DNA of 64,000 bases from a phage. Under the pieces are notes generated by a model. That model was not told the origin of the DNA. It saw nothing but the letters and a program-made list of their open reading frames with translations, and searched no databases. Positions 973 through 8,351 of this stretch are shown in pieces. Location of the stretch: assembly GCA_028522875.1 (NCBI GenBank), contig GCA_028522875.1_3659.1; one strand, written 5' to 3'. Numbering within the stretch: the first letter of the stretch is position 1; each line of letters starts with the position of its first letter. Both the position numbers and the translations under genes were made by a program.

Positions 973-2256
973 TCATTCAAGCACCTCCCAAGTATCTGGG
1001 TTAACATTTCGGACGCAGATACCGACAGGGAATTGGTAGTTGTTGTCTTCTGTCCTTGCTTGGTATTTGAAGGTGACAAACTTGCCGATCATTTCCTGCA
1101 TCCTGTCATAGCTACGCTCCTCGTGCGTGCCTTTCATCTTCATTTTAACAACAATACCTTCCTTGTCAACGCAGATAAGAACACCTTCATCATTCTTATC
1201 TTTCTCAACGTCAATAACTTTCACCTCTGCGTCGTTGAACTTTTTCCATTTCAATGCTTCAGATGTTCGCTGACCGTACTCGTATTTACCGCAGAAATTA
1301 CGCATGATAGTACCTTCATATCCTTCGGACATGAATATACCAACAGATTCTTCGCAATGATCAACTGTGTACGCAAGCTCTGCGTCAACAACCTTGATAT
1401 GGTCAAGCATCAGAGTGGTAACGGTATCCTCTGCATCCATAAGATCCTTGCAGCGTCCAGACTCTGTTTCTGGATCCCACCACACCTTGTCGCTAGGAAT
1501 ATCAAAAATGTGATACTCCAGATCGTAGCTACAGTACCCACCGTAACGCAAATCATCACGAACAGGCTCAACATCGACAGGAATATCTACCTTGTTGAAG
1601 TTTTTGTATGTTGATAAGCCTGCCTTAATTGCGGCATGACGGCGTTTTTTATCTGCCTCATAGTCTTTATCGATCTCGGCCTGAATCTCTTCCTGTGTGC
1701 GCCACCGTTTAGCAAGAGACACTATTTTCTGCAAAGGAAGACCATGAATGTATAGTTCCCCATCAAGTTGTTTAATCCCAGTGGTAGAATGGAAAGAACG
1801 AAGTTGCTCTAAAAGCTTTCCTTGAATAGGGTAGGACTTATTACCACGGGAAATAAATTTAGGCTCACCATTTTGGAAAACAACAAGCAGACGAAGGCCA
1901 TCTAACTTACGCAAGATCCAGCAGGGTAGTTTAAGTGCCTTGCCACGCTTCAGGTAGTCATGCACCAGCATGGGTAAAAGATCAACACCCTGCTCGCAAT
2001 CTTCCATGTTTTCAACATACCCCAGACGGACTTGTTTTTCCCACTTGCTGATAGCCTCAAGCTCGGCCTGTTGCTCAGCTGTAGTCTCGTTGGCACGACC
2101 TACGTTCTTAGGTGTGCATACCGTCTCTTTGTACTGCAATTTACCGTCAAGCTTGCCAAACTCTACGATAACCTTTTCGCCATCAGTGAATACTTTCCAC
2201 TGTTGGTAGCTGCCATCTTTGTTCAGTGCGTACAGTGTTGTTTTGATTTGATGCAT
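973..2256 (-). CDS. ATP-dependent DNA ligase (covalent nucleotidyltransferase superfamily)
   Basis: 427 aa; motif I KLDG (LRKLDGLRL), motif III LDGELY, motif IV EGTIMR, motif V LKWKK in canonical order. Confidence 0.7.
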   Translation of the reverse strand: MHQIKTTLYALNKDGSYQQWKVFTDGEKVIVEFGKLDGKLQYKETVCTPKNVGRANETTAEQQAELEAISKWEKQVRLGYVENMEDCEQGVDLLPMLVHDYLKRGKALKLPCWILRKLDGLRLLVVFQNGEPKFISRGNKSYPIQGKLLEQLRSFHSTTGIKQLDGELYIHGLPLQKIVSLAKRWRTQEEIQAEIDKDYEADKKRRHAAIKAGLSTYKNFNKVDIPVDVEPVRDDLRYGGYCSYDLEYHIFDIPSDKVWWDPETESGRCKDLMDAEDTVTTLMLDHIKVVDAELAYTVDHCEESVGIFMSEGYEGTIMRNFCGKYEYGQRTSEALKWKKFNDAEVKVIDVEKDKNDEGVLICVDKEGIVVKMKMKGTHEERSYDRMQEMIGKFVTFKYQARTEDNNYQFPVGICVRNVNPDTWEVLE

Positions 2257-2525
2257 TACTCGTCCTCTTCCTTAAAAATTTTAAACATCTCTTCTTTACT
2301 CATTACCAACCAGTCTCCCATAAAGTCAACTAGCCAATCTCCCTGGTACAAGACAAGATTACCAAACGGCTCGATAAGCTCACACATGCGACGAATATCT
2401 CTGGTCCGAACAGGCGACGATGTAAACACACCCGTATCAATCCACCGTTGCAGATCAGATACTGATGAAGAGCTTCCGTCAAACTGGTGTGCTTCTACAG
2501 GTTTAGCAAGATTAAATAACGGCAT
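2256..2525 (-). CDS. hypothetical protein (89 aa)
   Basis: ORF whose stop overlaps the ligase start (coupled arrangement); no recognisable motif. Confidence 0.3.
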   Translation of the reverse strand: MPLFNLAKPVEAHQFDGSSSSVSDLQRWIDTGVFTSSPVRTRDIRRMCELIEPFGNLVLYQGDWLVDFMGDWLVMSKEEMFKIFKEEDE

Positions 2526-2820
2526 TGCAGTCCTCCTTCTGTAGTAGGTCTTTTATAGGATAAACAAGTAAGTGTGGATCGGAATAACGTATAGTCCTAT
2601 TCTGCCACACTATGAACTTTATTACAACCAAATTTACAATATCTTTATCACCATGTAGCCCAACACACACATTTGTCCATATTTTGTGGTTGAAGATCTT
2701 GCTATCGATGTAGATTTTAGTGTCAAACTTATCTTCCATTCTACCTATAAGTTTGATCAGCTCCTTCATCTGGTCGCCAAACACAGCATCTTTTTCAAGA
2801 TCTCTGGAATGCTTGTACAT
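2512..2820 (-). CDS. hypothetical protein (102 aa)
   Basis: ORF in minus-strand gene train; no recognisable motif. Confidence 0.3.
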   Translation of the reverse strand: MYKHSRDLEKDAVFGDQMKELIKLIGRMEDKFDTKIYIDSKIFNHKIWTNVCVGLHGDKDIVNLVVIKFIVWQNRTIRYSDPHLLVYPIKDLLQKEDCNAVI

Positions 2821-2882
2821 AACTAACTACCTCACTGCATACTTTCCATAATAAGTAAAGCCGGGTAATCCCGGCTATGTTG

Positions 2883-3596
2883 TTAAATATACTCTGTTAC
2901 ATCCTTGAAGCTCGAAGGCTTCATGATCTTACCTTTGCTGTCAAGGAATATAATAACTTTATTGCCGTTGTAGAACTCCTCTTTAGCAACGAAACCTTCG
3001 TAGCGACCACCAAAACGACGCTCAAGATCTTTAATCTCCAACTCGATGAGTTGTTCAGCAGGCATATCTGCACTGGCACCGTGTGAATACCGTAGATGGT
3101 TGATCCGTGCAAACTTACTGTCATTAGATTTGAGAACCTTCCGCATCATCCCACACACATCGCCGCGAAGCTGGAACAGCAAAGCTGTTGACAACTCCGC
3201 TAAGCGGTAAGCTGACGCTCTTTGCTTGGATGTGTTTTTCGCAGCGATCAGTGTATCATAGAACTCACCGATCTTGAACTTAAGACCTCGTGGATTATCA
3301 AACAGGTTTGACCACTTTTCGTGATTGTCATTAACAAGATAAGCTGCATAACTTGTGACAACGTGAAGATCGCAGGCCTCTTTTAGCAGGTGATCTCCAC
3401 CATCACCTTTCTCCAGCTCTTCCAAAACCTCATTGAACTCTTCCTCAATGAAGCTAAGCTGTAATTCGAATGGTGTGTATGATTTTTTCACTTTAGCTGC
3501 CACACGGTTCCAGTTTTCCACCCAGTTGGCAGACCAAAGGTAGTTTTCAGGCTGAGACAGTTTTTCCAGGTTGTCGATCAGTTTAGTATTCAGCAT
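2883..3596 (-). CDS. putative MazG-like nucleotide pyrophosphohydrolase domain protein
   Basis: 237 aa; N-terminal acidic helix pattern EEEFNEVLEELEKGD...LLKEACDL resembles the EExxE...E...D metal-binding motif of all-alpha NTP pyrophosphatases; assignment tentative. Confidence 0.35.
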   Translation of the reverse strand: MLNTKLIDNLEKLSQPENYLWSANWVENWNRVAAKVKKSYTPFELQLSFIEEEFNEVLEELEKGDGGDHLLKEACDLHVVTSYAAYLVNDNHEKWSNLFDNPRGLKFKIGEFYDTLIAAKNTSKQRASAYRLAELSTALLFQLRGDVCGMMRKVLKSNDSKFARINHLRYSHGASADMPAEQLIELEIKDLERRFGGRYEGFVAKEEFYNGNKVIIFLDSKGKIMKPSSFKDVTEYI

Positions 3597-3609
3597 TAAA
3601 GGTCTCCTT

Positions 3610-4371
3610 TTAAAGTTCCATAAAGTTTTCTACAGTTTCAATAAATGCTTTATCAGAGAAAGCGTCAACAGCACCGTTAAACCATACAGGGATCCCGCGA
3701 TCCTCATATTGATAAAGGTCGCTACGTGAAATGCCACTTCCATCTGCACTCTGCGAGTCATACTTGTTTACAATCAGCAGTTTTGTGCCTTTACAAGTAG
3801 CAGGAAACAATTCCCAGTTAAAATTAATAACTGTGTTAGAACAACCTACCAGGATCACCATATCATTGCTTGTGAGAGATGTCAACAGTTCATACATGTC
3901 TGTATACTTAGGAGCAACCTCACCGAAGAACACCACATTGGGCTTAACCCAGGTATACTTGCCTGTATCTACCTCCGTGTATCCGATATTTTTAATTACA
4001 TCATTACCTTCAGCATCTTCGTAGGTGATTTCAGGCAAATACCCGTGGACATGTAAAATATCTTCATGTTTTACACCAGCACGCTCCAGCAAATCATCTA
4101 CATTGGTGGTAAGGTTGATCACACGACCAGACCAGCGGGAATACCACTCAGCGATCCGAAGATGTGCAAGGTTAGGATCAACACTGCCCAGAGCTACACG
4201 ACGTGCATTGTAAAAGTCATGCACCTTATAGTAGTTCTTGGCAAAGGTGTGGATGTTGCACACCTCATCGATGCTGAAATTCTCCCACATTGCAGTGCTA
4301 CCAGATCGGAAAGTGGGAATACCAGATTCAGCGCTCAAACCAGCACCGGAGATAATAATCAGTCGTCGCAT
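3610..4371 (-). CDS. Sir2-family (sirtuin-like) NAD-dependent deacylase / ADP-ribosyltransferase homolog
   Basis: 253 aa; GAGLSAESGIPTFRSG (Sir2 GAGISxxSGIPxFR NAD-binding motif), TTNVDDLLERAG, catalytic-His context LHVHG, FFGE, LVGCS; no Zn-ribbon CxxC pairs seen. Confidence 0.65.
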   Translation of the reverse strand: MRRLIIISGAGLSAESGIPTFRSGSTAMWENFSIDEVCNIHTFAKNYYKVHDFYNARRVALGSVDPNLAHLRIAEWYSRWSGRVINLTTNVDDLLERAGVKHEDILHVHGYLPEITYEDAEGNDVIKNIGYTEVDTGKYTWVKPNVVFFGEVAPKYTDMYELLTSLTSNDMVILVGCSNTVINFNWELFPATCKGTKLLIVNKYDSQSADGSGISRSDLYQYEDRGIPVWFNGAVDAFSDKAFIETVENFMEL

Positions 4372-4379
4372 AAGTGTCC

Positions 4380-4730
4380 TCAGTAGATGTTTTGTTTAAT
4401 CTCTATTCCAAACTTCTTGAATGAGTCAGCAGCAAGCATAAATTTACGAGCTGCCGATGGATTAGAAGTATGCACGAAAATAACCACGTTGTCAATAAGT
4501 GGTGGCTTTCCGAATACAAGTTTCTCCTCTAGCGCAGAGAAGCAGTCGTACCCTTCAAGCACTTCACCTAGATCATTGTCAAAATACCACTCAGATACGC
4601 GTCTGTAGAGCTTTCTCTTATCATTAAGAAAATCCATAAACTCAGAAGAATTCTTTAGCCACAGAGCGTCTGGGAGTCCATAATCTGACGGATCTCTAAA
4701 ATCATCAAGCCACACAATCCACTTCTTCAT
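4380..4730 (-). CDS. hypothetical protein (116 aa)
   Basis: ORF with 4-nt overlap with upstream RNA-ligase-like gene (translational coupling); N-terminus MKKWIVWLDDFRDP; no confident family. Confidence 0.3.
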   Translation of the reverse strand: MKKWIVWLDDFRDPSDYGLPDALWLKNSSEFMDFLNDKRKLYRRVSEWYFDNDLGEVLEGYDCFSALEEKLVFGKPPLIDNVVIFVHTSNPSAARKFMLAADSFKKFGIEIKQNIY

Positions 4731-5662
4731 TGCATATAGTCCTCGTTGTGGAAATAGTAGTCCAGTATCTCACGACGCTCCTGCTCTAATAAGCAATTCC
4801 ACACATCTTCTGTATAGTTGCTACGAATAAATTTTACCATACCGTAAAACTCTTCGTCAACACGTTTAAAGATATCATCATCCCAAATCTTCCAAGCTTT
4901 ACCCCTCATTACTGCCTTCCGTGCCAGATAGTATGGAGACTTGATCTTCAGCTGCAGATCATAAGGGTAGTAAGGCTTACGAATCATATACCCTTCACCT
5001 CTTGTTTCTGCAGCTAATTCTTTTGCATAGCTGAACGGAATTTCACGCACAGTGTGAGGACGTTTTGCACCAAGGTATTTGGCAATCCCATCTAAAGCTG
5101 CTTCTGGTAGCATTATTCCAGAATCATTATATCTGCAACCTATCAAATATGCGCCATGATCTTCCTGAACAATATGCGGATCTGAAGGGTGGCAAATTTC
5201 AAACATGAATGTCATGTTTTCATTGCCCATAACCTTCTTGATAAGATCTAAATTACCACATTGCTCCCTGATGGTTTCTTTTGCGAGGTTACAATATGGG
5301 GAATCAAGAGACCCGGTTGTTGAGAACAATAGTTCACCTTTATGAGATGATACCACACCGAGGAATCCGTTCTTTTTCTCTACCGCAGTAACAAGTTTAC
5401 TGTCCGGTAGGTTGGTGGAGTTTTCTCCTAAGTTGAATACTTTTGTGAAAGGCCATGCCACAACATTCCCCTCATTACCAACAACAATACCTCGGCACTC
5501 CAGTAAACGCGGAGACAAATGCCACAGATTGTTGTAGAATACTTTTCTGGCATATTTATAGATCTTTAATCCAAGATCTGGATAATACCGACTGGTTACA
5601 AGACCTTTGTCTACTAGGTCATCTGCATTAAAATACTTCATCATACGTTCCTCATTTGTCAT
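4727..5662 (-). CDS. RNA ligase-like nucleotidyltransferase (putative RNA sealing enzyme)
   Basis: 311 aa; KxNG motif I (EKKNGFLGVV), motif IV EGYMIRKP, motif V LKIKSP; size and context favour RNA ligase over DNA ligase but not proven. Confidence 0.5.
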   Translation of the reverse strand: MTNEERMMKYFNADDLVDKGLVTSRYYPDLGLKIYKYARKVFYNNLWHLSPRLLECRGIVVGNEGNVVAWPFTKVFNLGENSTNLPDSKLVTAVEKKNGFLGVVSSHKGELLFSTTGSLDSPYCNLAKETIREQCGNLDLIKKVMGNENMTFMFEICHPSDPHIVQEDHGAYLIGCRYNDSGIMLPEAALDGIAKYLGAKRPHTVREIPFSYAKELAAETRGEGYMIRKPYYPYDLQLKIKSPYYLARKAVMRGKAWKIWDDDIFKRVDEEFYGMVKFIRSNYTEDVWNCLLEQERREILDYYFHNEDYMQ

Positions 5663-5705
5663 TTTGTCAGTCTATCCTTCCACACAAATAACCTAGTGTC
5701 AACAC

Positions 5706-5734
5706 TTGAAATTAACAAAACAGTTAGGTATACT
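5706..5734 (+). promoter_or_regulatory. sigma70-like promoter (TTGAAA-N17-TATACT) for kinase/phosphoesterase operon
   Basis: -35 TTGAAA at 5706-5711, 17-nt spacer, -10 TATACT at 5729-5734; located in divergent intergenic region. Confidence 0.5.
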
Positions 5735-5762
5735 ATCATTAAAATTAAAACGGAGGATTGCT

Positions 5763-6173
5763 ATGTCTAAAATGCTATATATCGTGCGTGGTCTGCCAGG
5801 GTCTGGCAAATCAACACTGGCAAATGCGCTATCTTTAGAAGGTCTGTATCCACATTTTGAGAATGACATGTTTTGGTATGACGATGACGGCAATTACAAC
5901 TGGGATGCAAGTAAAGTAACACTCGCAGCAAAATGGTGCAAAGATAACGTAGAAGATATGATGCGTATGGGATACGACCGTATCGTGGTAAGTAATACGT
6001 TTACAAAAGAAAAACATGTGCAGGGATATGTTGACATGGCAATCAGTCATGGGTATAGTTATACCGTAATCGTGGTTGAAAACCGCCACGGTAATAAAAG
6101 CATTCATGATGTTCCAGACAAGGTTGTGGATCGTATGGAACGCCAGCTTAAAAACTGCATTAAACTTAAATGA
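5763..6173 (+). CDS. P-loop polynucleotide 5'-kinase-like protein
   Basis: Start chosen at ATG 5763 behind GGAGGA RBS (ORF-track start 5706 lacks RBS); Walker A IVRGLPGSGKSTLA resembles kinase domain of T4 Pnk-type enzymes. Confidence 0.6.
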   Translation: MSKMLYIVRGLPGSGKSTLANALSLEGLYPHFENDMFWYDDDGNYNWDASKVTLAAKWCKDNVEDMMRMGYDRIVVSNTFTKEKHVQGYVDMAISHGYSYTVIVVENRHGNKSIHDVPDKVVDRMERQLKNCIKLK

Positions 6174-6180
6174 GGAATGT

Positions 6181-6735
6181 ATGAAATACTTTGTAACAAG
6201 CGATACGCACTTTCTCCACCAGCGGGTCATGGAGTTTGATTCATGTCAAAAACACAGATCTCAATATGATCACAATCTTGACAGTATGAATGCGGGAATC
6301 ATCACCGAGTGGAACTCCGTTGTGTCACCTGCAGACACTGTGTTCCACCTGGGAGATATTGCGTGCACTAATGATAAGAATATCAACAACTTACTTCCAG
6401 ATATTCTAAATATGTTGAACGGACATATTATTCTTGTTCGTGGCAACCATGACACAAGGACGACTGTCAGAATTATGAAAGAGTTCGGTCATGAGGTTGT
6501 AGATTATTACGAGCTTCGCCACAACAAGAATTTGATCTGTATGAGCCATTACCAGTTTGCAAAGTGGAACAGAAAGCCTCACGGATCAGTCCAACTGTTC
6601 GGTCATGCTCACGGAACCACACAACAGTTGTTTGGCAGGCAGCTTGATGTCGGTTGGGATGTGTGGGGGAGACTCTTACCATTAGAAGAGGCATACCGTA
6701 TTGCAATGAGTTTTGATATTGACAGCAGGGAGTAA
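6181..6735 (+). CDS. calcineurin-like metallophosphoesterase
   Basis: Start at ATG 6181 behind GAGGAA RBS; motifs SDTHF (DxH), GDIA, VRGNHDT (GNHD), GHAHG in canonical order. Confidence 0.65.
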   Translation: MKYFVTSDTHFLHQRVMEFDSCQKHRSQYDHNLDSMNAGIITEWNSVVSPADTVFHLGDIACTNDKNINNLLPDILNMLNGHIILVRGNHDTRTTVRIMKEFGHEVVDYYELRHNKNLICMSHYQFAKWNRKPHGSVQLFGHAHGTTQQLFGRQLDVGWDVWGRLLPLEEAYRIAMSFDIDSRE

Positions 6736-6782: not shown

Positions 6783-7133
6783 ATGAAAGATGGGGATAAG
6801 CTGCTATATCTTAAAGTCCCCCTTGAAATACTATCTATGTCAAAAGTTTTGAATGACACAACTGGGGAGGTTGTTGTTCTTGACTTGTATGACAAGATTG
6901 TATACTGCTACCTGCACAACTGGTATAAGCTTGGAGGAAATTCACGCTTCACACCAAGCACAAGGAAAATTGCAGCAGATGTTGGGATAAAGAAAACAAA
7001 AGCAGCAGCGTGCGTTAAAACTTTAGAATGTGCAGGAGTGGTTGAAACATCCACACAAGGGAGAGGTAAAAGATGCACATTTTCCAAAGTTTTGCCACCA
7101 GAAGAAGTTATTCGAATGTCAACAACTGGTTAG
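6783..7133 (+). CDS. putative helix-turn-helix DNA-binding protein
   Basis: 116 aa; AGGAG RBS; segment STRKIAADVGIKKTKAAACVKTLECAGVVE resembles HTH/winged-helix recognition region; lies directly upstream of palindrome array. Confidence 0.35.
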   Translation: MKDGDKLLYLKVPLEILSMSKVLNDTTGEVVVLDLYDKIVYCYLHNWYKLGGNSRFTPSTRKIAADVGIKKTKAAACVKTLECAGVVETSTQGRGKRCTFSKVLPPEEVIRMSTTG

Positions 7134-7207
7134 ACCAGTAAAAACTTAAATATCTGTACTATAAGGGTTTGTATGTTTTATGTTCACCATGGAACAGAAA
7201 CTATTAA

Positions 7208-7290
7208 CTGTCCGTGATACGGACACCACTGTCCGTCACGCGGACACATCTGCCCGTAATACGGACACTAACTGTCCGTGATACGGACAC
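7208..7290. promoter_or_regulatory. array of four tandem 19-bp palindromic sites (CTGTCCGT-nnn-ACGGACAC) at ~21-bp spacing
   Basis: Copies at 7208-7226, 7229-7247, 7250-7268, 7272-7290; copies 1 and 4 identical, 2 and 3 each with 1-2 substitutions; inverted-repeat arms TGTCCGT/ACGGACA. Confidence 0.6.
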
Positions 7291-7430
7291 ATAAAGAATA
7301 TAACTAAAATAACTAAATAATAAAAAATAAAAGATCTAGTACTTATGGTACTAAGTACATATACTTAACTTATGTAGAATATACTAGATCCTAAGTACCA
7401 TGTTTTAAATTTATTACTTTCTATAGGTAG
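7291..7430. repeat. AT-rich region with direct and inverted repeats (possible DNA unwinding / origin-like element)
   Basis: ATAACTAAA direct repeat, palindrome GTACTAAGTAC, inverted repeats AGATCTAGTAC ... GTACTAGATC; very low GC. Confidence 0.4.
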
Positions 7431-7700
7431 TGTCGGCCCTTCATTGGCACTCGCCTACGAGGGGCGAGATGCCGGGCCTCCATAGTGCACACATGCAGGT
7501 CTGTTAACATGTGTGGGAGCGAAGCGGCGCAGGCCAAAGGCCGAGCACTAATGTGGACCACCGACGAAAGCTTGCCAGCGCCGTAAGGAGTCGGTTGAGA
7601 GCCTCCCGCGCGAGTTTGGATAAAGTTTATGTGTGGAAACGGACAATGAGGCCCCTAAATCGCTCCACAGCCATATAAACTATACCAAGTAAGGCAATCG
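7431..7700. ncRNA. candidate structured non-coding RNA (GC-rich island A)
   Basis: No ORF of 60 aa or more on either strand; abrupt GC rise; nested helices e.g. CGGCCC/GGGCC, TGGCA/TGCC, CTCGCC/GGCGAG (7434-7479) and CACACATG/CATGTGTG (7488-7515); strand and ends unknown. Confidence 0.3.
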
Positions 7701-7772
7701 CACCAGTTTGATAGAAAAGCTCGTTACAAAGCGATACAGCGAGTTTTTCTATAACTTGAAGAGGAGGCAGCT

Positions 7773-8351
7773 ATGAGTCCACGCAAAGATGACCGTGAAA
7801 AGATTGCAAAACGTTATCAGAATGAAGAACAGATGGAGAAAACTTTCAAGTGGAAGCCAGGTTTCCAGCGTAATCATTCTAACGCTCGTGATCGTAAGCA
7901 TCCGGATAAGTGGTTAACACCGCCAAATGATGGCATGCAGGTTGGTGATGAGAAGGAGCTGTCACCTGGAAAAGATGGCAACTACATTCGCACTAAGGAA
8001 GCAGGTCCAAAGGATGACAGCTATCTTGTAGATAAGGTTCTTGATGGTATTGATGTGGATGTTGACACTGCACGAAACCTTTTTCTTGGTTGGTATCGTA
8101 CAGGGTTTTTCGACATCAAGGCTATTCGTCGTGTTTGCGATATTAAAAAGTCTGCCTATGATGATGACTCTCTACATCGCACTCTGAGACAATACTCAGA
8201 GAGATACGGTCATCCAGTCATCACTCTTGACGATATTAACGAAGTGATGTATCATGCAGAGGTTGTTGCAGGTAGATTCGGTGATGCATATCTCGGTATT
8301 CTTTCTGCAAAAGATGAGGTAATGTTAAATAAAATTTACTATGAACGCTGA
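7773..8351 (+). CDS. hypothetical protein (192 aa)
   Basis: ORF with strong GAGGAGG RBS; no recognisable motif. Confidence 0.45.
   Translation: MSPRKDDREKIAKRYQNEEQMEKTFKWKPGFQRNHSNARDRKHPDKWLTPPNDGMQVGDEKELSPGKDGNYIRTKEAGPKDDSYLVDKVLDGIDVDVDTARNLFLGWYRTGFFDIKAIRRVCDIKKSAYDDDSLHRTLRQYSERYGHPVITLDDINEVMYHAEVVAGRFGDAYLGILSAKDEVMLNKIYYER

Follow-up and report, generated by a model that had tools for sequence, protein, structure and literature searches.

The question raised by this locus is what a phage does with a sirtuin of its own. The gene lies in a phage sequence of 64,000 nucleotides (GenBank assembly GCA_028522875.1, contig GCA_028522875.1_3659.1; hereafter the window), where positions 2883-4730 hold three closely packed open reading frames (ORFs) on the minus strand, encoding proteins of 237, 253 and 116 amino acids. 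A preliminary description, made from the letters and ORFs of the window, had recognized the 253-residue product as Sir2-like and the 237-residue product as MazG-like. The analysis presented here leads us to propose that these genes make up the downstream end of an operon, which belongs to a cassette for healing and sealing RNA ends in an rV5-like phage, and that Sir2 may act in RNA repair in the manner of Tpt1/KptA, a reading to which we give a probability of roughly 0.4. The genes of the cassette are as follows.

2883-3596, minus strand: MazG-superfamily all-alpha nucleoside triphosphate pyrophosphohydrolase, 237 amino acids; predicted fold nearest to dimeric dUTPases, C-terminal beta-hairpin with the invariant GKIMKP
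3610-4371, minus strand: zinc-less sirtuin (Sir2), 253 amino acids; PF02146, phage-specific clade derived from class III (CobB/SIRT5-like) sirtuins
4380-4730, minus strand: cREC (cyclic-phosphate processing receiver-like) protein, 116 amino acids; PF20274
4727-5662, minus strand: T4 Rnl1-type RNA ligase, 311 amino acids; PF09511, first gene of the operon
5763-6173, plus strand: P-loop kinase (AAA_33/polynucleotide-kinase-like), 136 amino acids; PF13671, start as annotated in phage FFH2
6181-6735, plus strand: calcineurin-like metallophosphoesterase, 184 amino acids; PF12850 and PF00149

Sequence analysis of the 253-residue protein bears out its assignment to Sir2, as it matches the Pfam family SIR2 (PF02146) at 98.7 bits against a cut-off of 24 (E 5e-28), over 178 of 180 profile positions, and matches phrog_2162 at 1e-108. 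Among proteins of solved structure it is closest in sequence to E. coli CobB (1s5p, 1.7e-21) and human SIRT5 (4.7e-21), followed by Sir2-Af1 (1.3e-19), all three of which we take to be class III sirtuins. An AlphaFold (AF2) model built from 40 homologues, with a predicted local distance difference test score (pLDDT) of 89 and a predicted template-modelling score (pTM) of 0.87, contains a Rossmann-type fold for binding nicotinamide adenine dinucleotide (NAD) together with a small domain. The structural-neighbour search suggested in the preliminary description, carried out with Foldseek on this model, gave 285 matches in the PDB at E <= 0.001; the best 50 of the 285 are all sirtuins, with CobB (6rxq) at the top (7e-19, template-modelling scores 0.75/0.83).

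Conservation was counted in an alignment of 121 homologues, the members of the clade. The NAD-binding signature noticed from the single sequence, made up of GAGLSAESGIPTFR (residues 9-22), HG (109-110) and FFGE (148-151), is invariant or nearly so among them. The motifs constant throughout the clade are GAG..S.G..FR, FYNxRR, TNVD, H109-G110, KP..FFGE, GxSN and N202, and residues G9-A10-G11, S16, F21-R22, N90, D92 and H109 are unchanged in 120-121 of the 121 sequences. F53-Y54-N-x-R57-R58 is likewise invariant and is the same as FYNARR of CobB; it includes the Y-x-x-R motif, which we take to be anion-binding from its known role in SIRT5. The likeness to CobB and SIRT5 extends from the Rossmann and small domains to GAGxSxxSGIxTFR, FYNARR, N-x-D, HG, FGE and GxS.

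Three features of these deacylases are lost. The preliminary description had found no zinc-ribbon cysteines, and this holds for the clade as a whole: the segment from HG to KP, 29-37 residues long, contains no cysteine in 71 sequences, one in 48 and two in the remaining 2, whereas the aligned stretch of E. coli CobB contains four. The model nevertheless retains a three-stranded sheet at the position of the zinc ribbon. The glutamine of the TQN motif is gone as well, TQNID of CobB being TTNVD in the clade, with T89 in all 121 sequences. Finally, V-Y-P of CobB, in the GTS..V-Y-P stretch, is replaced by V181-I182-N/D183-F184, with no proline in 120 of 121. In E. coli CobB this conserved V-Y-P region lines the acetyl-lysine site, and the loss of zinc ligands from phage sirtuins has already been noted for KVP40-like phages (PMC5107563). 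Scores against the NCBIfam equivalogs for CobB and class III sirtuins, NF040867 and NF001753, are far under the cut-offs (105.2 against 320 bits and 123.6 against 243 bits), and a PADLOC scan gave no defence family matching Sir2 at E <= 0.01 and nothing relevant for any of the six cassette proteins. Because of its relatedness to PF02146, CobB and SIRT5, the lost deacylase features, the shortfall against NCBIfam and the absence of a PADLOC match, the phage Sir2 is, as judged from sequence, a divergent branch of the housekeeping class III sirtuins that is specific to phages, and not a relative of the NAD-depleting defence effectors.

The strongest single clue to function comes from the 116-residue neighbour. 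Described at first as having no assignable family, it was placed by profile search in Pfam cREC_REC (PF20274), at 52.4 bits against a cut-off of 27 (E 9e-14), and in phrog_1479 (5e-33); a sequence search of the PDB returned nothing meaningful (best E 0.48). Residues D9, D10, R12, D13, D51, D53, G60, Y61, H87, N90 and P91 are invariant in nine homologues, jumbo-phage copies included, so that the receiver-like acidic residues D9-D10 and D51/D53 and the motif V-H-(S/T)-x-N-P are constant in the rV5-like, Mydo-like and jumbo-phage proteins. The cREC family is experimentally uncharacterised (PMC9503650), and cyclic-phosphate hydrolysis is its predicted activity.

Transcription of the four minus-strand genes runs in the order Rnl1 RNA ligase, cREC, Sir2, MazG-like, and each junction carries a Shine-Dalgarno sequence. 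The start of cREC overlaps the stop of Rnl1 by 4 nucleotides (ATGA); the spacer between cREC and Sir2 is 8 nucleotides, with the GAGGA Shine-Dalgarno sequence of Sir2 overlapping the cREC stop codon; and the 13-nucleotide spacer between Sir2 and the MazG-like gene contains AAGGAG. The overlap ascribed to the 116-residue gene therefore exists, though with the upstream RNA ligase gene and not with Sir2. This arrangement shows the four genes to be tightly coupled in translation. The kinase and metallophosphoesterase genes run divergently from the Rnl1 operon, from which they are separated by an intergenic region of 100 nucleotides.

The placement of Sir2 beside RNA-repair genes is upheld by the neighbouring proteins. 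The RNA ligase matches PF09511 (RNA_lig_T4_1) at 55.5 bits and phrog_562 at 1.2e-65. Direct sequence search of the PDB with the ligase gave no match, while its family profile matches T4 Rnl1 (2c5u) at 8.9e-10, with the K-x-N/D-G motif of the catalytic lysine aligned. Assignment to the 2'-phosphate-dependent Trl1-type ligases was considered and rejected, as the profile matched T4 Rnl1 only and no fungal Trl1-type enzyme; a Trl1-type ligase would have required a Tpt1-like step, and the ligase therefore lends no support to one. The kinase matches PF13671 at 3.6e-10, phrog_2071 at 5.5e-58 and phrog_505, 'polynucleotide kinase', at 2e-9. Its longest ORF begins at an in-frame TTG (5706), 57 nucleotides upstream of the annotated ATG (5763) and within the divergent promoter region; the ATG, which is preceded by a GGAGG Shine-Dalgarno sequence, seems the likelier start. 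The metallophosphoesterase matches phrog_547 at 1.9e-52 and PDB entry 1xm7 at 4.7e-11. The set resembles the Pnkp and Rnl1 pathway of T4 in its Rnl1-type ligase, its P-loop 5' kinase and its being encoded by a phage, here with phage tRNA genes close by. It differs in that the kinase is a stand-alone domain of 136 amino acids, 3' healing falling to a separate metallophosphoesterase, cREC and possibly Sir2.

This neighbourhood has been described before. Iyer, Burroughs, Anantharaman and Aravind (2022, Viruses 14:1977; PMC9503650, section 3.7.3) analysed it in Escherichia phage V5 and predicted that the sirtuin strips 2'-phosphates from RNA in Tpt1/KptA fashion, in an NAD+-using repair of broken tRNA. 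Their type-2 'sirtuin-centred NAD+-utilising RNA-repair system', represented by phage V5 and Proteus phage Mydo, has the same gene set and belongs to the same phage group, and nothing essential differs here: sirtuin, RNA ligase, cREC, kinase, MazG-family protein and phosphoesterase all lie within 2883-6735 of the window.

The proposal is built on the domain identities, the operon structure, the retained catalytic residues, the departures from the deacylases and the recurrent gene context, which the sequences display directly; the substrate of Sir2 and the order of the pathway we infer, following the published prediction. A host anticodon nuclease or toxin would cut tRNA to leave 2',3'-cyclic phosphate and 5'-OH ends. 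The cyclic phosphate would be opened by cREC, the metallophosphoesterase or both, a task that may fall to 2H or HAD proteins in other phages, and the 5' end would be phosphorylated by the kinase. The sirtuin would then move ADP-ribose from NAD+ onto the remaining 2' (or terminal) phosphate with release of nicotinamide, and the phosphate would leave as an ADP-ribose phosphate or cyclic-phosphate by-product, by Tpt1/KptA chemistry on a different fold, whereupon Rnl1 would seal the break. The MazG-like protein may be a phage dUTPase-type pool enzyme; alternatively, it may break down ADP-ribose by-products, a task that would fall to a Nudix protein in jumbo phages.

The sirtuin mechanism itself likewise includes an attack on C1'' of NAD+ followed by a 1'',2''-cyclic intermediate. 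The chemistry of Tpt1, which proceeds in two steps (PMC6097658, PMC6573784), is comparable to what is proposed here in that a phosphate oxygen attacks C1'' of NAD+, nicotinamide leaves and an ADP-ribose cyclic phosphate departs (PMC6097658); some Tpt1 enzymes also take off terminal 2' or 3' phosphates (PMC6573784). Beyond this proposed chemistry, the likeness lies in the proposed role in RNA repair. The difference lies in the fold, as the phage Sir2 has the Rossmann fold of a sirtuin and not the ADP-ribosyltransferase (ART) fold of the PTS_2-RNA domain of Tpt1/KptA, and in the activity, which for the phage protein is hypothesised.

To place the cassette among its relatives, phage records were searched with Sir2 by tblastn, giving homologues in 976 of 50,697 records, including T5-like, Mydo-like, phi92-like, KVP40-like and jumbo phages; among the matches listed, most are annotated as Sir2 deacetylase. 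In a protein database, 946 Sir2-homologous clusters were found at E <= 1e-5. The neighbourhoods of 80 viral loci carrying the Sir2 clade were then surveyed with iterated profiles of each neighbour, and three contexts emerged, which correspond to the three types of PMC9503650, section 3.7.3. The context of rV5-like, Mydo-like and related phages of 146-153 kb (about 14 loci) holds metallophosphoesterase, Rnl1, cREC, kinase, Sir2, DNA ligase and MazG-like genes in varying order. The six-gene set of the window recurs in 12 further viral loci, and every rV5-, Mydo- or phi92-like locus has the DNA ligase gene along with the cassette. In T5-like phages (29 loci, T5 included), Sir2 is immediately followed by a HAD_SAK_2 protein (PF18143, 'Swiss Army Knife RNA repair', 4e-20). 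The jumbo-phage context (4 loci) runs 2H, Sir2, a 122-residue protein, Nudix, cREC and PIN-PhoH. The repeated occurrence of the clade beside RNA-end-processing enzymes in three different phage lineages favours a role in RNA-end repair, as does the combination of retained NAD-binding and catalytic residues with the clade-wide disappearance of the four cysteines, the TQN glutamine and the V-Y-P proline.

Smaller features of these other loci were also recorded. T5 (locus L003, 9651-10481) and 31 T5-like loci carry two tandem DUF7415 (PF24187) genes after the Sir2/HAD_SAK_2 pair, and T5-like loci have a PIN-PhoH-like gene on the opposite strand, about 3.7 kb upstream. In one jumbo-phage locus (L060), the 2H phosphoesterase gene directly upstream of Sir2 (7509-7955) encodes a protein matching both the anti-CBASS family Acb1 of Pfam (1.6e-16) and 2_5_RNA_ligase2; the same locus encodes a Nudt16-like Nudix protein, cREC and a PIN-PhoH fusion.

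Several observations weigh against the assignment of Sir2 to RNA-end repair. A literature search for experiments on phage sirtuins returned comparative-genomics or modelling papers only. Kinase, metallophosphoesterase and T4-type Rnl1 already constitute a complete heal-and-seal set, and a 2'-phosphate intermediate is not required, because T4 Rnl1 needs none and the ligase profile is of the T4 Rnl1 type. Both the FGE loop and the Y-x-x-R motif of class III persist, which is compatible with a deacylase. About 30 of 81 Sir2 loci, mostly those of more distant Sir2 copies, have no recognisable RNA-repair neighbour. A reciprocal search based on cREC identified phi92-like contigs (L092-L095) in which the cassette of cREC, metallophosphoesterase, Rnl1, kinase, DNA ligase and MazG-like genes is whole and lacks Sir2. 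In these phages about 30 kb of the same contig separate Sir2 from the cassette (L034 and L092 being one contig). At the 19 cREC loci that are more distant (L096-L114), no Sir2 occurs within 8 kb. Sir2 can be parted from the repair cassette and has the character of a movable accessory. The phi92-like Sir2 genes (L033-L035) have as neighbours genes to which no function is assigned (DUF7275/DUF7277 and a probable methyltransferase).

The RNA-repair reading can also be taken further: the zinc-less sirtuin would be a nucleic-acid-directed, convergent, non-ART analogue of Tpt1/KptA acting on the 2' or terminal phosphates of nuclease-damaged tRNA, and cREC, with either the RNA end or the ADP-ribose cyclic-phosphate by-product as its substrate, would be the first cyclic phosphodiesterase with a receiver fold. 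We regard this reading as doubtful.

Among the competing explanations, the one deserving most attention is that Sir2 is a CobB-like NAD+-dependent lysine deacylase that retunes metabolism by removing acetyl or succinyl groups from proteins of the host or the phage (acetyl-CoA synthetase, for instance), its adjacency to RNA-repair genes being no more than early-gene synteny. CobB and SIRT5 are its nearest relatives in sequence and in structure; the catalytic histidine, the FGE loop and FYNARR with its Y-x-x-R are identical to those of CobB; and in phi92-like phages the gene is detached from the repair cassette. Such a function was proposed by Skliros et al. 2016 (PMC5107563) for the homologue of KVP40-like phages, with salt bridges replacing the zinc ligands and with T5 and JD001 homologues listed. 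That homologous, zinc-less sirtuin (Vibrio phages K575 and QD01, 45-50% identity over about 76-79% of the query) differs in its setting, as those genomes carry NAD+ salvage genes, and the 2016 proposal was based on modelling and transcript levels only. The clade-wide loss of zinc-ribbon cysteines, TQN glutamine and V-Y-P proline speaks against deacylation, as do the scores far under the cut-off of every NCBIfam deacylase model and the recurrence of the clade beside RNA-end enzymes in three unrelated phage lineages. We consider this explanation unlikely, and the suggestion that Sir2 modifies host proteins, made in the preliminary description, found no specific support. More doubtful still is the possibility that the sirtuin, together with cREC (and with 2H and Nudix proteins in jumbo phages), makes or destroys soluble immune signals derived from NAD+ or ADP-ribose, or toxic ADP-ribose metabolites, as a counter-defence against Thoeris, CBASS or other NAD-linked immunity. 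It has been argued that phage domains processing ADP-ribose mostly target its soluble derivatives, and that cREC may process 1''-2'' cyclic ADP-ribose phosphate (PMC9503650); the 2H neighbour in jumbo phages matches Acb1 and is accompanied by a Nudt16-type Nudix protein. This Acb1 match may, however, reflect a shared 2H fold only, since the same protein also matches PF13563, and the immediate partners of Sir2 in the window are an RNA ligase and a polynucleotide-kinase-like protein rather than enzymes that degrade signals. We know of no sirtuin that degrades nucleotide immune signals of this sort.

Sirtuins that lack zinc generally do not act as deacylases, and 5'-phosphate ends can receive an ADP-ribose cap from Tpt1 enzymes; both facts would suit a macromolecular ADP-ribosyltransferase, like SirTM or functionally like T4 Alt/Mod, that modifies host proteins or the 5'-phosphate ends of DNA or RNA to hijack or protect them. 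DNA ligase is encoded directly downstream of Sir2 in Mydo-like loci and in one further locus (L063), which is consistent with this, but no sequence feature indicates a specific target and no Macro, ARG or NADAR partner for reversal is found nearby, as is also the case in PMC9503650. Such a transferase seems improbable. The least credible proposal, which we regard as very improbable, is a defence-type NADase carried for superinfection exclusion. Its one argument is the general precedent of Sir2 NADase effectors such as ThsA, DSR1/2, Sir2-HerA and pAgo-Sir2, which share the Sir2 superfamily fold, use NAD+ as substrate and also lack a zinc ribbon. The phage protein, by contrast, comes from the classical PF02146 lineage with CobB and SIRT5 nearest to it, matches no PADLOC model, has neither a sensor domain nor a partner gene, and is a fixed component of phage lineages that are strictly lytic (976 records). 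The analogy with NAD-depleting host effectors, from which the preliminary description had derived a counter-defence role, is therefore not sustained, whereas counter-defence as such remains plausible by way of the repair of nuclease-cut tRNA, as in the RNA-repair reading.

The MazG-like protein is the least securely linked member of the repair set. By itself the 237-residue sequence has no direct match in Pfam or NCBIfam, and its best E in a sequence search of the PDB is 2.2. It belongs, however, to phrog_671, 'nucleotide pyrophosphohydrolase', and a profile search with it gave 67 homologous clusters; among the aligned family members, 30 of 34 match PRA-PH (PF01503) and 7 match MazG. Residues E52, E53, E56 and D76 (the metal motif E-x-x-E ... 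D), N158, K161 and the C-terminal GKIMKP are invariant in the family. A test of superfamily membership found homologues that match the profiles, an E-x-x-E ... E-x-x-D motif and a four-helix core, and the AlphaFold model (pLDDT 91.7) has an all-alpha core followed by a C-terminal beta-hairpin. Because the phrog, the homologue matches, the metal motif and the model agree, the name 'MazG-like' given in the preliminary description appears right at the level of the superfamily, the fold being predicted to lie closest to dimeric dUTPases. Synteny ties the gene to DNA ligase and to the cassette, as the phi92-like cassettes are whole where Sir2 is missing; its status as a firm member of a Sir2 system was accordingly rejected. 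A dUTPase-type role in the nucleotide pool is at least as likely as the clearance of ADP-ribose by-products. Across the genome of the related phage FFH2, except about 50-61.6 kb, ThyX is annotated and no dUTPase is.

Escherichia phage LL12 matches the 1848-bp interval at 99.1% identity, and many other Vequintaviruses (rV5-like phages) match it at 98-99%; their records name the genes 'Sir2 NAD-dependent deacetylase', 'nucleotide pyrophosphohydrolase', 'hypothetical protein' and 'RNA ligase'. Since near-identical genomes are annotated, and since published work on the V5 neighbourhood arrived at the same predicted function, the finding is not new. What is added here is modest: the identification of the 116-residue protein as cREC, the loss of three deacylase positions with Y-x-x-R kept, the translational coupling of the four minus-strand genes, the predicted dUTPase-like fold of the MazG-like protein and the detachability of Sir2. 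The idea of a sirtuin acting on RNA has been in print since 2022, so novelty would lie in proof rather than in proposal. If the published prediction is true, sirtuins gain a new class of substrate, the phosphate ends of RNA, and phages have a second, NAD+-consuming route against the cleavage of tRNA by host anticodon nucleases. It would also bear on phage host range and the design of therapeutic phages, for which rV5-, T5- and Mydo-like phages are common candidates.

Further features of the region are listed below.

973-2256, minus strand: ATP-dependent DNA ligase, 427 amino acids; PF01068 and PF14743
2256-2525, minus strand: small conserved ORF, 89 amino acids; phrog_14585 at 1.6e-62, a family of unknown function
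2512-2820, minus strand: small conserved ORF, 102 amino acids; phrog_7684 at 2.8e-48, a family of unknown function
2859-2876, minus strand: GC-rich hairpin, 7-bp stem with 6 GC pairs, just past the stop codon of the MazG-like gene
9649-10461, plus strand: cluster of six tRNA genes; ARAGORN, with Rfam tRNA matches

The hairpin at 2859-2876 may mark the end of the Rnl1-cREC-Sir2-MazG-like unit or serve as an RNA-stabilising element. It is suggestive by position only, as the number of terminator-like sites across the region is not above that in shuffled sequence; scans of the region for promoter and terminator consensus sequences likewise did no better than shuffled controls. The two small ORFs at 2256-2820, between the MazG-like and DNA ligase genes, are also kept in related loci. 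The tRNA cluster (Arg-TCT, Tyr-GTA, Ser-TGA, Thr-TGT, Met-CAT and Pro-TGG) lies about 4 kb from the repair genes. Between its tRNA-Ser and tRNA-Thr genes, at 10118-10216, ARAGORN reports a 99-nucleotide 'tRNA-???' with a 4-base anticodon, which stays under the gathering score of the Rfam tRNA model and corresponds to nothing in the equivalent gap of the FFH2 annotation. This could be a tRNA-like element of unusual or degenerate form.

Between 18 and 25 of the matching records are titled 'Campylobacter phage', 16 of them with C. jejuni as host, and carry the interval at high identity; in Campylobacter phage C14 (MG065653), Sir2 is 99.6% identical in amino-acid sequence. The window is from an E. 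coli Vequintavirus of about 43% GC, and the host labels of those records look doubtful. Elsewhere in the window, four tandem repeats of 21-22 nucleotides, each with the palindrome TGTCCGT-NNN-ACGGACA, occupy 7205-7290, in an ORF-poor gap (7134-7772) about 70 nucleotides downstream of the gene for a 'replication initiation protein' (6783-7133). They resemble an iteron or operator array and possibly belong to an origin of replication. In phage FFH2, finally, the gene for the large subunit of anaerobic ribonucleotide reductase (record positions 85622-88543, L083) is annotated as two pieces, ORF105a and ORF105b, with an HNH endonuclease gene between them, and several further HNH genes interrupt or flank replication genes of that phage.

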